Below are positions 5,264-27,394 of a stretch of 64,000 bases of DNA, piece by piece. Under the pieces are notes generated by a model that worked only from the letters and a program-made list of their open reading frames with translations, had not been told where the DNA came from and did not search any database. The DNA comes from a virus, in IMG/VR virus record IMGVR_UViG_3300020411_003820, positions 1 through 64,000 of that record; one strand, given 5' to 3'. The translations under genes and the position numbers were made by a program. Position 1 is the stretch's first letter; every line of letters starts with the position of its first letter.

Positions 5264-5707
5264 CTATTTCCGATTCATTCCTTTCCAAACTTCTGTTGCA
5301 CCGCCCAAAAGCGAGCTAATGTCAACACCCGAATCATTTGGCGCGCCTAAATCTACAGAACCTTGAGGTTGTGGCGCTGCTTCATAATTTGACATGGGGG
5401 TTGTGCCTTCAAACAAATCAACACCATTGTAAGCATCAGAGCTAACCGCTTCTAATAACTTCTTTCTGTGTTCCTTCATTTTTGCACGTGCATCGTCTTG
5501 ACGTTGCTTTCTGTGTTGCATTTCATGCTTTTCGTCAAACAAGCGTTCGCTTCGTTTTTGCGCTTTAGTCTCGGTAACCAGATTACCTTGCATGCCTTTG
5601 GCAACTTCTGAAACAACATTAGACAAGACGCCCTCTTCTATAAGAACTTCGTGAATGCATTCTTTCACCAATGGTTTGATTAATCTTTTTAAATCAGCTT
5701 TTTTCAT
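5264..5707 (-). CDS. Hypothetical head-associated protein with leader motif
   Basis: MKKADLKRLIKPLVKECIHEVLIEE N-terminus; coupled to both neighbours. Confidence 0.7.
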   Translation of the reverse strand: MKKADLKRLIKPLVKECIHEVLIEEGVLSNVVSEVAKGMQGNLVTETKAQKRSERLFDEKHEMQHRKQRQDDARAKMKEHRKKLLEAVSSDAYNGVDLFEGTTPMSNYEAAPQPQGSVDLGAPNDSGVDISSLLGGATEVWKGMNRK

Positions 5708-7581
5708 AATTTCCTCTTTTTAATTCCAGCTAAAGTTTGTAAACGCTCAAACGATTCTGTTAGTTCCGAAGGTTCCGGTTTTGATTCTCTTGGTGCTGGA
5801 ATCGCTCTTCTTAGCTTATCAACTGACTGTTTTAGCTCATTTGCAGACGCACCAATACTATCAGGAATCCCCGGTACCGACGCTAGTTTTTCTACACCAC
5901 CTAAAACAGTATCGATCCAGTAGTCACCATCATCTTGTTTCTTATAAATGGCGGCGGATATCCACTCTTCTGGTACATTTTCTATTAATTCTTTTGTAGC
6001 GGAGCCGGCCTTAGCTAAATCTTTAGCAGCCTTTGCAGATTTCATTGTTGTAATCGCGGCTTTCGCGTTCTTAGCAGAACCAAAAGTCTTGATTAGAAGT
6101 CGTCCGCCTTTGAAGCTAGCAGGTCCGACTTTTGCTGCTAATTTTGCTCCGATGGGTCCGAGCTTTCCTAACTTCGATGCTTTTCCAACAACTGGCGCCA
6201 GTGCTATAATATCTAACAATGCAGCTGACATTTTGCCGCGAACCAAATTGAAAACAAGACTACCGAGAGTAGCTGCGCTTGGAATTAAAGTTGCTTCAAA
6301 AGCAGGATTTATGCCCGCTGCAGACACCGTATTCAAGGCTGCTTCAATTCCTAATTCAAGTTTACCGAGAGTGCTGAGTTCTTCTTTATCTTCGCCATCT
6401 TCTGCAGATCGCGCAGTGCCGGTCTCGGTAGGTTCATCAGAAGTATCTTCGTCTTCGCCCGGTGTAGGCTCAGGTTTTGGTGCCGGTGGACTAAATTTAA
6501 CAGTATTTAATTTAGCCCATTTTTTAATCAGCTTTTCAAGTTTTTGATTTACCTCAGAACTTAAATTAAAAGAATTAATCAAATCATTTAATTGTCTTGT
6601 GGTTTCAGGTGAATATGTTCTTGGGGCGCGCTCTGGATCTCCGATTGCCTCCAATACTATGTCGTCTTGTTCGGTAGCTTGAAGCATAAATGACAACAAT
6701 TGACTTATTTGCTCACGACTTAGTGCTTTGGCTAATCCGGAATTCTTTAGCATATTGATTAATGAATCATCATAAACTTCACTGTTAATGCCCGCAATGG
6801 CCATTTCGGGTTCTGGTAGCGTTATTTCACCTTCGTCATCATCTGGGCTTGCTGGCGCTTCAGGTTCAGGCTTTGGTTCCGGTGCTGCCTTCGGCGCGGC
6901 AGGCTCTGAATCACTAGGGGGCATCGGATCCGGCAGCGGTTCTGACTCTGTTGGTTTTTCTTTTTCTTGGTCATACATACTAATAGCTTTAAAATCTTCT
7001 ATATCTAACTCAATCGGCTCTATTCCTTGAGCCTCAAGATCATCAGCAACCTCTGGAACGGTTGCTGCTAGTAGTTGTACATCTATTGGGCGCCCTAATA
7101 ATTTTTCAGCAGCTATAACAACACTGTACGCAAAAACTGCGCCAACTGCATAGTCTTCGTCCGGTACATATCCGCTTGGATGATGTTCCGGGTTGTCGGA
7201 CCATTCCACGTTGTTCCCGGGGGCTCTGTCAATAAAATCTTCTATACGTAACGAAATGGGATGTCCACGTTCATCAAAAAAGGAGAAAAATGTTCTTGGA
7301 CGCCGTGTTAACAACTCTTCTTTATAGCTAGCTAACGAAAGAAAATCACCTTCTTCAACCTTTTTTTGGGCGAAGTCCCGCGCAAGGCGCTCCACATTGC
7401 TTTGAATCCAATCTCTAACTTTCGGATCCAAGACCTTGATGTGTTCGGTCCCGGGCGCTGCATTCGCCGCTGCCAATAGCTCAGCGTGTTCCGAGTCAAA
7501 GGGTTTATCTACTTTAGGCTCTTGTTCTTGTTCTTTTATAAACTTTTGCCAGTTCTCATTTATTTGTTTATAGCTGTTCAC
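5704..7581 (-). CDS. Large putative internal head (cargo) protein with a pre-toxin-TG-like hairpin
   Basis: Probable GTG start at 7581 (MNSYKQINENWQKFIKE; the track start 7599 is the alternative). Pro/Glu linkers; AALLDIIALAPVVGKASKLGK segment; ends LTESFERLQTLAGIKK. Confidence 0.65.
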   Translation of the reverse strand: MNSYKQINENWQKFIKEQEQEPKVDKPFDSEHAELLAAANAAPGTEHIKVLDPKVRDWIQSNVERLARDFAQKKVEEGDFLSLASYKEELLTRRPRTFFSFFDERGHPISLRIEDFIDRAPGNNVEWSDNPEHHPSGYVPDEDYAVGAVFAYSVVIAAEKLLGRPIDVQLLAATVPEVADDLEAQGIEPIELDIEDFKAISMYDQEKEKPTESEPLPDPMPPSDSEPAAPKAAPEPKPEPEAPASPDDDEGEITLPEPEMAIAGINSEVYDDSLINMLKNSGLAKALSREQISQLLSFMLQATEQDDIVLEAIGDPERAPRTYSPETTRQLNDLINSFNLSSEVNQKLEKLIKKWAKLNTVKFSPPAPKPEPTPGEDEDTSDEPTETGTARSAEDGEDKEELSTLGKLELGIEAALNTVSAAGINPAFEATLIPSAATLGSLVFNLVRGKMSAALLDIIALAPVVGKASKLGKLGPIGAKLAAKVGPASFKGGRLLIKTFGSAKNAKAAITTMKSAKAAKDLAKAGSATKELIENVPEEWISAAIYKKQDDGDYWIDTVLGGVEKLASVPGIPDSIGASANELKQSVDKLRRAIPAPRESKPEPSELTESFERLQTLAGIKKRKL

Positions 7582-8176
7582 TGTCCGACAATACCTCATT
7601 CAATAACTCGTTGATGCGCTCTTTTCTGGTGCCTTCGTGTAAGTCTTTAGCTTCACGCATCATGAATGCGCCGGGTGTTGATGGTTCAGAAACAATGTCA
7701 AAGCAGACTAGTTCAAAATCTTCTTGAACGATTGATCTACCGTTTTGCTCTACGACGGAACCAGTACCGCGAGATGAAATACCAATAGCGCAACCACCTT
7801 CAACAAGTGCGCGCAGGGTTTTGCCGGCTGGGGTGTCAAGTACTTGAATCTTGCCCATAACCTTCTTGCCTTCCATCCAGATGGCTGTAACTTTATGTGC
7901 AACATGTTGTAGCGAAACTTCGACTTTATCGGGATGGTCTAACTCGCCTAATGCTCGTCCAGATTCTACAAGTTTAGAATACTTTTGCACTTCTCGACTT
8001 AAAACATTTTCGGTATAAACGCGGCCATTGCCATTTTCAGTTTCGCACATTTGCATAAGACCAGATAAAATCATGCCACCATTGGCAACAAATTTTTTCT
8101 CAGCCTCTGTCAACAAATCTTGACATACGCCACCATCACAAAGTTCATAATATTCTCTGAGTAATTTCTTACCCAT
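7568..8176 (-). CDS. Prohead protease (T4 gp21-like)
   Basis: NGNGRVY, LGELDHP, GISSRGTGS and FDIVSEPSTPGA motifs. Confidence 0.93.
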   Translation of the reverse strand: MGKKLLREYYELCDGGVCQDLLTEAEKKFVANGGMILSGLMQMCETENGNGRVYTENVLSREVQKYSKLVESGRALGELDHPDKVEVSLQHVAHKVTAIWMEGKKVMGKIQVLDTPAGKTLRALVEGGCAIGISSRGTGSVVEQNGRSIVQEDFELVCFDIVSEPSTPGAFMMREAKDLHEGTRKERINELLNEVLSDSEQL

Positions 8177-8178
8177 AG

Positions 8179-26033: not shown

Positions 26034-26044
26034 AAAGCCTCCAT

Positions 26045-26842
26045 TTATTTGAGAGTATTTTTTGTTTCTTGGGCTTTTTTAAATGCTGAAAAGTCGGCAT
26101 TTAATAATAAAATTGGTATTTGTTTACCGCTGGCATCGGCTGTTTGTCCAATCTTTTTAAATTTACCGTAACCAAACGAACCAAAATCTTGTATTTGTCT
26201 GTCCATGATTGAATTTAATTTTTCAGCATCCATCATACCATAATATTTCATCTTACCATCGATTCCGTATTTGCCTGTCGAAAAATCAGTGTAGGAAGAA
26301 TCAATATTGTCATATGGAACATAATAAAAAACGCCACCCGTGGCCGGATCTCGAAGAGGCTGCCCATTATCGCCAGTTGCCATTACAAGATCTGCTTGGT
26401 ATTTGCTTACAAAATTATCTGTGTCGCTAACCCGCTTCTTCTCGCCACTGTCAACTCCTAAGTCGGCGGTGCCGCGGTCAAGAGCACGCTGAACAAGTTT
26501 TTGCAACTCTTTATCTTTTAGCGCTTCAACAGCATCTCTAGCGTTTTCGGCATTTGCTAACTCTTGAGCGGCACCTGGTGTAACCCCTACATCATTAAGT
26601 ACCTGTAAATCATTACCAATTTGACTCCCAAAGGCTGCAAGCGCAATAGGAAGAATAATCTTCATGTTGCTGCCAATCGCAGACTTGAGAGTATCTAAAA
26701 CACTTTTTTCTAAAATTAAAATTTGCTCTTCGGACAAATCAAGTTGCATTTCAGTAATAACTGATCTGATTTCTTCTATAACAATCTTTTCAGATACTTC
26801 TTCTAATATAAGCTGTTTTAATTTTGATTCTGCTATGATCAT
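26045..26842 (-). CDS. Leader-bearing protein with internal hydrophobic segment
   Basis: MIIAESKLKQLILEEV...ITE...ILE, then MKIILPIALAAFG. Confidence 0.7.
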   Translation of the reverse strand: MIIAESKLKQLILEEVSEKIVIEEIRSVITEMQLDLSEEQILILEKSVLDTLKSAIGSNMKIILPIALAAFGSQIGNDLQVLNDVGVTPGAAQELANAENARDAVEALKDKELQKLVQRALDRGTADLGVDSGEKKRVSDTDNFVSKYQADLVMATGDNGQPLRDPATGGVFYYVPYDNIDSSYTDFSTGKYGIDGKMKYYGMMDAEKLNSIMDRQIQDFGSFGYGKFKKIGQTADASGKQIPILLLNADFSAFKKAQETKNTLK

Positions 26843-26848
26843 AATTTA

Positions 26849-27394
26849 TTACCGTGATACCAATTGAGGTGGTACATTTTTTGTATTCATCGAAAACTGC
26901 AACCGCTGTCCGCTTTGTGTATCAAAGACAAATGTTGTTTCCCCGCTTTTCGCGTCCGTATTTTGATTTTGAAGTCCATATTTGTTGAATACGTCCATAC
27001 GTTTAAATTTATCATCGCCAGCGGCTTCAAGTTCTGCAGCTATTTTAGATAAAGAATCCTTGGCACTGTCGACATCTGTAGGTAAACTTTTGCTAGACTT
27101 TTTATCACCCATGTCAAACCTTGGATCATCATCCATATTAAATTTAGAATCGTCAAAGTCCGCGGACATTGAAGACAGCTCTTTATCAAGAGCGGCCCAC
27201 TTATCAGCCATGGCAGGATTAGGCGCTAAAACTCCAGCAGCAGTTGTAACCAACATGCCTGCTGAAACCATTTTTTTAACCCAATTTGGCATTGCTTCTT
27301 GAAGTTGTATTTCTGTAAGCTGTATGTCGCTTGATAAAGCAGCTTCGACCTCTTCTCTGATAATCTGTTTTAATTGTGATTCAGTAATCTTCAT
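26849..27394 (-). CDS. MKIT-leader protein with internal signal peptide
   Basis: MKITESQLKQIIREEV...LTE..LQE, then AMPNWVKKMVSAGMLVTTAAGVLAPNPAMA. Confidence 0.75.
   Translation of the reverse strand: MKITESQLKQIIREEVEAALSSDIQLTEIQLQEAMPNWVKKMVSAGMLVTTAAGVLAPNPAMADKWAALDKELSSMSADFDDSKFNMDDDPRFDMGDKKSSKSLPTDVDSAKDSLSKIAAELEAAGDDKFKRMDVFNKYGLQNQNTDAKSGETTFVFDTQSGQRLQFSMNTKNVPPQLVSR

Follow-up and report, generated by a model that had tools for sequence, protein, structure and literature searches.

How a phage can load its head with accessory proteins is classically illustrated by the capsid targeting sequence (CTS) of bacteriophage T4. To our knowledge, experimental evidence for capsid targeting is limited to T-even phages, where it concerns a handful of cargos. 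Here we examined a putative counterpart in an uncultured virus, IMG/VR record IMGVR_UViG_3300020411_003820, of which positions 1 to 64,000 were analysed (hereafter the window). It consists of eleven proteins with unrelated bodies that are encoded between positions 5,264 and 27,394 and begin with one of two kinds of short leader, designated families A and B. A single contig of 84,283 bp, with a CheckV completeness of 43%, contains the window as its first 64 kb. In T4, the protease gp21 cleaves after L/I-x-E, and suppressor mutagenesis of the internal protein IPIII assigned residues 4 and 7 to targeting and residues 8 and 10 to processing (PMC9026906). Capsid targeting has been proposed as a possibly general protein-loading route of T4-like phages (PMC9026906, PMC3012670). 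We propose, with a probability of roughly 60%, that the two leader families of this virus are prohead-core targeting propeptides that would be removed by an S77 protease encoded in the same window.

All eleven leaders listed in a preliminary description of the window were found at their positions, on the minus strand in every case. Five members of family A resemble each other clearly. These are A1 (18441-18677, 78 amino acids (aa)), with L8, I11, I12 and E14 in its leader; A2 (21189-21803, 204 aa), which has a second A-like motif at its C-terminus (residues ~183-198); A3 (26849-27394, 181 aa); A4 (26045-26842, 265 aa), with a divergent leader; and A5 (14557-14883, 108 aa), which has a conserved positional orthologue in relatives. 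A6 (13516-14001, 161 aa) is encoded by a core gene immediately upstream of that for the large terminase; its leader is also divergent, the middle of the protein is rich in proline and acidic residues, and an A-like helix is present at its C-terminus as well. A7 (5264-5707, 147 aa), a conserved core protein encoded two genes downstream of the protease, with orthologues in many loci, is a weak member, having a 16-residue N-terminus that ends in L-V-K-E. Family B consists of B1 (18062-18439, 125 aa; W8, H11, I12 and E14), B2 (18674-19318, 214 aa), B3 (19338-20027, 229 aa), whose leader has no site at 12-14 and which contains a membrane-like hydrophobic segment, and the acidic B4 (5704-7599, 631 aa). 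The B4 motif lies nine residues into an open reading frame (ORF) starting at 7599, after a short N-terminal extension, and B4 begins inside the end of the protease gene. The starts at 14001 and 20027 correspond to ATGs inside longer, mechanically called ORFs. The former is credible because GGAG lies 7 nt upstream and because it is positioned after the stop of the preceding gene, the latter because it overlaps the stop of the tubulin gene as ATGA.

The similarity of the leaders was evaluated in an unselected test, in which residues 2-16 of all 69 minus-strand genes were compared without gaps using BLOSUM62, with 200,000 random internal 15-mer comparisons as the control. Thirteen gene pairs scored above the control maximum of 29. 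Twelve of them were A1-A5 or B1-B3 pairs with scores of 32-61, and the remaining one was a pair of SDR paralogues. The leader similarity claimed for the whole set therefore holds for A1-A5 and for B1-B3, is borderline for A6 (20-22), and does not extend significantly to A7, which fits the hydrophobic-hydrophobic-x-Glu pattern only; the A6 orthologues in relatives have canonical leaders. The claim that family A is kept at the peptide level was borne out, since six residues identical in A1-A3 are specified by differing codons. The three B leaders of the window have 18 identical nucleotides that are part of a local DNA repeat. As had also been described, the bodies are unrelated beyond the leaders, and none of the 11 gave a solid match in Pfam or PHROGs. 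No leaders were found elsewhere in the 84-kb contig, and no tagged tail, baseplate or fibre protein was found.

The anatomy of the leaders was derived from position counts over 75 unique family-A and 16 family-B leaders. Methionine is invariant at position 1 in both families. Position 8 is L or I in 100% of the A leaders and tryptophan in 16/16 of the B leaders, while position 11 is I or L in 73/75 of the former and aromatic (F/H/Y) in 13/16 of the latter. Position 12 is I, V or L in all A leaders and hydrophobic in 15/16 B leaders, and it is followed by glutamate at position 14 in 74/75 and 13/16, respectively; the combination [LIVMF]12-x-E14 occurs in the same numbers, 74/75 and 13/16. A further glutamate at position 15 is found in 73/75 of the A leaders, with no conservation at this position in family B. 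The two families have a common design of 14 residues, in which hydrophobic or aromatic residues stand 7, 4 and 3 positions before the predicted cut after Glu14. An AlphaFold2 model of A2 made without an alignment, of which only the secondary structure is usable (predicted local distance difference test score 56), was all-helical, with a helix at leader residues 5-16 followed by a break.

This design can be placed in register with the T4 tag. According to the T4 record, the tag of IPII and IPIII contains Tyr4, Phe7, Ile8 and Glu10. When counted back from the cut, positions 8, 11, 12 and 14 of families A and B correspond to positions 4, 7, 8 and 10 of T4 IPIII, that is, to the residues implicated in targeting and in processing. 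The N-termini of the scaffold proteins of T4 (gp22), of Flavobacterium phage immuto and of the related genome G002 are themselves tag-like, which suggests that the tags may imitate a scaffold-core contact. About seven tagged proteins, including A2, have a second A-like motif near the C-terminus, and these copies parallel T4 Alt, from which both ends are trimmed (PMC9026906).

The protease presumed to act on these leaders is encoded at 7568-8176 (minus strand), as the preliminary description had stated, and was identified as a prohead protease of the Peptidase_S77 family (T4 gp21 type; Pfam E 2e-28). It is 35% identical to T4 gp21, and its His and Ser align to His85 and Ser140, the residues replaced in the crystallised inactive gp21; judging from this catalytic pair, the enzyme is active-looking. 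A gene for the major capsid protein was not found in the contig, which we attribute to the incompleteness of the contig. A gp23-family capsid protein (E ~1e-60) is encoded about 10 kb downstream of the protease in four relatives, three of them complete (100% by CheckV), a position that would lie outside the present contig. In T4, the gp23 propeptide comprises 65 residues (PMC5694885), and the T4 cleavage site FLTE65|A aligns to LLRE|A or LLRE|S in the capsid protein of the relatives. From the alignment of the capsid site to LLRE, we predict that the protease prefers hydrophobic-hydrophobic-x-Glu, the ending of both tags. The tags are also found next to the protease gene. The gene that starts inside its 3' end has a B leader in the window and also in many relatives; in three others (L040, L043 and L045) this leader is of family A. 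The gene immediately upstream of the protease gene has an A leader in L020, L025 and L080. B4 was ruled out as the gp22 scaffold, since the acidic scaffold protein of complete relatives is encoded by a gene of its own, directly upstream of that for the capsid protein.

The leader-model scan that the preliminary description had called for was carried out on about 2.1 Mb of related DNA from IMG/VR, comprising 80 loci collected via the protease and 120 stretches collected via a degenerate leader-A DNA pattern. It recovered 228 family-A and about 40 family-B leaders, nearly all of them at an unvarying distance from Met1. With a model restricted to leader positions 5-18, 236 unique family-A matches were obtained, and in 226 of these a methionine lies exactly four residues upstream; most of the rest have GTG starts or lie at contig edges. 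Among 40 unique family-B matches, 29 are in exact register and 8 have a short extension. The bodies behind the A leaders fall into 129 BLAST clusters among 190, or at least 129 unrelated bodies. Each complete relative contains 6-8 family-A genes, most of which lie in the 16 kb upstream of the head module. The S77 protease is present in 13 of 15 large contigs chosen solely by the leader DNA pattern, and the other two contigs are 62-68% complete.

The two tags are interchangeable. One body domain follows an A leader in L012 and B leaders in L048 and L067 (62% identity over 55 aa, E 2e-19); a single body thus occurs with either tag, and the tags are exchangeable modules. A 58-aa lysine-rich protein of the window (16831-17007, minus strand) shares homology (46% over 35 aa, E 2e-5) with the body of an A-tagged protein in relative L016; it has no N-terminal tag and ends in an A-like motif, a further sign that tag and body are separable.

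No leaders were found with the A model in Pelagibacter phage HTVC008M or in cyanophages S-PM2 and Syn9, and among T4-like cultured phages the model matched none except immuto. There, an A-like leader is present on a 252-aa protein (L084:8487-9245, model E 1.7e-5), and a tag-like 73-aa protein is encoded between the portal and the protease (L084:18654-18875); immuto is thus a possible experimental system for studying the tag. A tblastn search of GenBank phages with a 30-aa leader gave nothing usable. When the first 40 residues of A3 were searched against a large protein database, just four near-identical matches were returned, the tag being too short for significance and the search uninformative on distribution. 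The leader motif strings were not found in the published literature that we searched.

If the tags are removed by the protease, its sites in the bodies are of interest. We defined the body as residue 46 onward, used size-matched untagged neighbours as controls, and expressed motif counts as ratios to a composition-shuffled expectation. In the tagged bodies, [LI]-x-E occurred at 0.93 of expectation, compared with 1.28-1.46 for [LI]-x-D, -Q, -K and E-x-[LI]. The pattern was reversed in the untagged neighbours, with 1.30 for [LI]-x-E and 1.05-1.16 for the other motifs. In a bootstrap over body clusters, the log-ratio difference was -0.61 (95% interval -0.96 to -0.22), and 0.0015 of the resamples were at or above zero. 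We regard this depletion of [LI]-x-E in the bodies as a moderate signal. T4 proteins were used as a control: IPI, IPII and IPIII have a single [LI]-x-E each, at the tag, and the core proteins gp22, gp68 and gp67 have 16, 5 and 3. Among the proteins of the window, A2 has its sites only at both ends (13, 14 and 22; 185 and 194), A3 has all of its sites in the first 33 residues, and A4 has all seven in the first 45. The sole site of A5 is at residue 14, B2 has none after residue 14, and B4 has 4 against 10 expected. The untagged 275-aa protein encoded just after the portal gene (9135-9962, minus strand) is rich in [LI]-x-E, like the T4 core proteins, with 11 sites after residue 22 versus 5.2 expected. 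It has an orthologue at the same position in immuto and is a candidate degradable prohead core protein. Avoidance of [LI]-x-E, as validated on T4 IPI-III versus gp22, may offer an inexpensive means of telling retained cargo and degradable core proteins apart.

The tagged proteins are small, with a median length of 121 aa, and few contain recognisable domains. When 256 tagged proteins of relatives were searched against Pfam and PHROGs, 5 (~2%) had any Pfam match, namely a sub-threshold Tox-PLDMTX (L072), DUF3450, DUF6321, FliG_C and DUF6745. The first is a papain-like toxin domain in a 120-aa B-tagged protein (L072:177-536, plus strand) that scored 21.9 bits, below the cut-off of 26.1; the FliG C-terminal domain is in an A-tagged protein (E 1.8e-8). 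In the window, B2 has a RyR-like fold at residues ~41-200, outside the tag, on the basis of a RyR match (E 0.036) and an Atlas structure match.

Taken together, the fixed register, the positional match to the T4 tag, the active-looking protease, the cleavage site of the capsid protein, the tags flanking the protease gene, the swapping of tags, their co-occurrence with the protease, and the depletion of [LI]-x-E in the bodies support a tag that works with the protease. We propose that each tag forms an amphipathic helix of 14 residues at the N-terminus. Its positions 8 and 11 would attach the protein to the scaffold core during assembly, in analogy to IPIII residues 4 and 7. After closure of the shell, the S77 protease would cut at residues 12-14, [I/L/V]-x-Glu, and the mature body would be freed inside the head. 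So short and self-contained a tag could be placed by recombination on any small gene, which would explain both the hundreds of unrelated bodies and the exchange between A and B.

Several observations weigh against this proposal. Homology of the tag to the T4 tag is not apparent, as nothing is alignable beyond Met-Lys and the terminal I-x-E. The bodies are mostly acidic, with a median pI of 4.9, 71% below pI 6 and 17% above pI 8; the T4 internal proteins are basic and bind DNA (PMC9026906). The depletion of [LI]-x-E is visible only after correction for composition, with absolute densities differing by about 20%, and the fraction of bodies free of sites equals that of the controls. Amphipathic helices resembling the tags are present at terminase N-termini. 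The slot of A6 just upstream of the large terminase is where a small terminase is expected, and if A6 is one, the tag would not be confined to head-internal proteins. Some tagged genes stand among replication and recombination genes (primase, Mre11-Rad50-like and tubulin); the ip genes of T4 are likewise scattered, lying beside denV, e and 57B in the T4 record. Finally, the promoter-like motif ACTATTTA, described below, is not enriched at tagged genes.

Other explanations for the shared leaders were weighed against these data. The closest rival to the proposed retention of cleaved cargo holds that the tags do target the core and are clipped but that most tagged proteins are transient core, scaffold or filler proteins, which, as with T4 gp22, gp67 and gp68, would be degraded or expelled during maturation instead of being delivered. 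We consider this unlikely. It would suit the small, acidic, helical or disordered bodies, which recall T4 gp67 and gp68, as well as the positions of the core-conserved A5, A6, A7 and B4 flanking the terminase and protease genes; the tag-like N-termini of the scaffolds of T4, immuto and G002 and the unchanged zero-site fraction of the bodies also speak for it. However, accessory and hypervariable bodies, which are unlike essential scaffold parts, form the majority (129 clusters among 190), and the bodies are depleted in [LI]-x-E, the opposite of gp22 with its 16 sites in T4. At least one body is a folded RyR-like domain.

A capsid may also have no part in it. The leader could be an amphipathic helix for docking to the tubulin, Hsp20 or FKBP proteins or to a membrane, or for oligomerising small host-takeover proteins. 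Several tagged genes indeed lie around the tubulin gene and among replication genes, and leader-like helices occur at C-termini and at terminase N-termini. We nevertheless regard such a role as quite improbable, as it would leave unexplained the invariant Glu14 with a hydrophobic residue 12 in two unrelated families, the fixed distance from Met1, the tags on genes overlapping or flanking the protease gene, the depletion that is specific to the Glu site, and the co-occurrence with the S77 protease. The least probable explanation, and a very unlikely one in our estimate, is that the peptide is functionless and the shared N-termini are by-products of DNA cassettes, such as recombination handles or translation-initiation regions, or remnants of duplication. 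The three B leaders with 18 identical nucleotides could be read in this way, together with the DNA upstream of them: a 24-nt copy of the 3' end of the tubulin gene lies before B2 (19319-19342) and B3 (20028-20051) on the minus strand. This element recurs before A- and B-tagged genes in several relatives and reads K-Y-E-W-I-S-N in frame. Yet the upstream DNA is diverse, and the element directly abuts the start of only 6 of 228 A-tagged genes, with a few more copies about 15 nt further upstream, on which grounds it was rejected as the cause of leader conservation; a Shine-Dalgarno-like site of their own is found at 180 of the 228. The A leaders, moreover, vary at synonymous sites, and the leader residues are conserved over hundreds of contigs on bodies of at least 129 unrelated clusters.

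The preliminary description had also held that the tag is a modular address that loads diverse effectors for delivery with the DNA. Its first half, a modular address tag working with a gp21-type protease, stands on the several lines of sequence comparison given above. The second half found no support: about 98% of the bodies have no recognised domain, and they are mostly acidic, unlike the basic internal proteins of T4. Delivery into the host is an inference from T4. That the tagged proteins are retained in the head, and that at least some are injected like T4 IPI or Alt, we hold only tentatively, the odds being somewhat against it; some of the tagged proteins may be transient core or scaffold parts instead. 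A bolder version, that a two-tag code (A or B, sometimes N- plus C-terminal) loads a large, fast-exchanged and mostly acidic set of proteins into the head for injection with the DNA, seems improbable to us. If it were true, the "injectome" of abundant uncultured marine phages could be read from sequence, A and B might set different docking sites or copy numbers, and many of the cargos might be DNA-mimic or other anti-defence proteins. If the proposal of cleaved targeting propeptides is correct, the principle known from T4 is applied with different tags to hundreds of unrelated proteins in a distant, environmentally abundant marine branch of the T4 superfamily, and candidates for packaged or injected proteins could be picked out of metagenomes with a simple N-terminal profile. 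Such a list would be a route to new anti-defence or host-takeover factors and to tags for loading foreign proteins into capsids.

The promoter-like motif ACTATTTA occurs in 12 copies in the window, all on the gene strand, where 3.9 are expected on both strands; they include copies at 1254, 2797, 5013, 14587, 16526, 18046, 18700, 27431, 33803 and 60667 (minus strand). Ten of the 12 lie 20-48 nt upstream of gene starts, including those of fibre-like and baseplate wedge genes. One copy is 23 nt upstream of A1 and another is 37 nt upstream of A3, inside the end of the primase gene, and in relative G002 the motif precedes the scaffold-capsid operon. We consider it a candidate late-promoter element of this clade that may feed at least some of the tagged genes. 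It was found at 14 of 225 tagged genes versus 94 of 1915 background ORFs. We therefore rejected the motif as a late promoter confined to tagged genes, and it does not settle the timing of their expression.

The remaining features of the window place the virus among the T4-like phages. Every gene between 3.7 and 28.3 kb is on the minus strand. Besides the protease, Pfam identified a T4-type portal protein of the gp20 family (9952-11934, Portal_T4, E 1e-74), the large terminase subunit (11943-13532) and a tubulin/FtsZ-like protein (20024-21163), all on the minus strand, and it also named a DnaG-type primase, an Mre11-Rad50-like fusion, Hsp20 and FKBP. The protease has 444 relatives in IMG/VR, and complete relatives are 187-196 kb in size. 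The nearest cultured phage is immuto, with 45% identity in the protease and 39% in the portal. Given the portal, the S77 protease, the larger complete relatives and immuto as the nearest cultured phage, the contig is, as judged from its genes, part of the roughly 190-kb genome of an uncultured marine phage in the T4 superfamily.

Additional observations were made along the way. An Mre11-like phosphoesterase and a Rad50/SbcC-like ATPase are fused in one 1035-aa protein (21815-24922, minus strand); the T4 counterparts are two separate proteins, gp47 and gp46. Within the head gene block, directly after A7, a gene for a very basic 79-aa protein (5023-5262, minus strand) matches ribosomal protein S21 (PF01165, 29.7 bits with a cut-off of 27), and an S21-like gene is at the same place in G002. 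The tail and baseplate region contains two giant minus-strand ORFs, both without a family match: one at 44995-57333 encodes 4112 aa, and the other at 61067-64000 extends to contig position 67402 (L083:1-3402) for a total of 2111 aa. Several of the fibre-like proteins encoded at 1-3661 have a common M-A/G-Y N-terminus.

The system that most closely resembles the one proposed here is the CTS of T4 IPI, IPII, IPIII and Alt, which is removed by gp21. In both, a short N-terminal tag is present on otherwise unrelated small proteins, with hydrophobic or aromatic residues 7 and 4 positions before the cut and an [I/L]-x-Glu end. Both are accompanied by an S77 protease, a T4-type portal and a gp23-type capsid protein (seen in the relatives in our case), both have tagged genes scattered outside the structural operons, and both include some proteins with motifs at both ends. 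In contrast to T4, the tag here has 14 residues instead of 10, and it comes in two unrelated and interchangeable families. There are also 6-11 or more tagged genes per genome, with hundreds of bodies in the clade, compared with 3-4 such genes in T4, and the bodies are mostly acidic where those of T4 are basic.

The ip loci and hyperplastic regions of T-even phages, with their PeSL cassettes (PMC2839356), are similar in that arrays of fast-changing small genes have a conserved leader or flank and that cargo is swapped via recombination at short conserved sequences. They differ in that the handle here is mostly the peptide-coding tag, the tubulin-3'-end repeats being found at a minority of the tagged genes. 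In the phiKZ-like giant phages (phiKZ, 201phi2-1 and SPN3US), many head-internal proteins are likewise cut after Glu by a diverged gp21 homologue, and the paralogues gp53 and gp54 have an identical 15-residue N-terminus (PMC5694885). Their propeptides, however, are mostly longer than 100 residues and dissimilar in sequence, the motif is S/A-x-E, and virion proteomics exists for them (PMC5694885). The cargo-loading peptides of encapsulins also direct diverse cargo into an HK97-fold shell by means of a short terminal peptide, but they are usually C-terminal, bind the shell directly and remain uncleaved, with no protease or DNA packaging involved. Compared with these systems, what is new here is the clade, the two 14-residue tag families unlike the T4 tag, their interchangeability, the scale of hundreds of bodies, and the acidic nature of the cargo.

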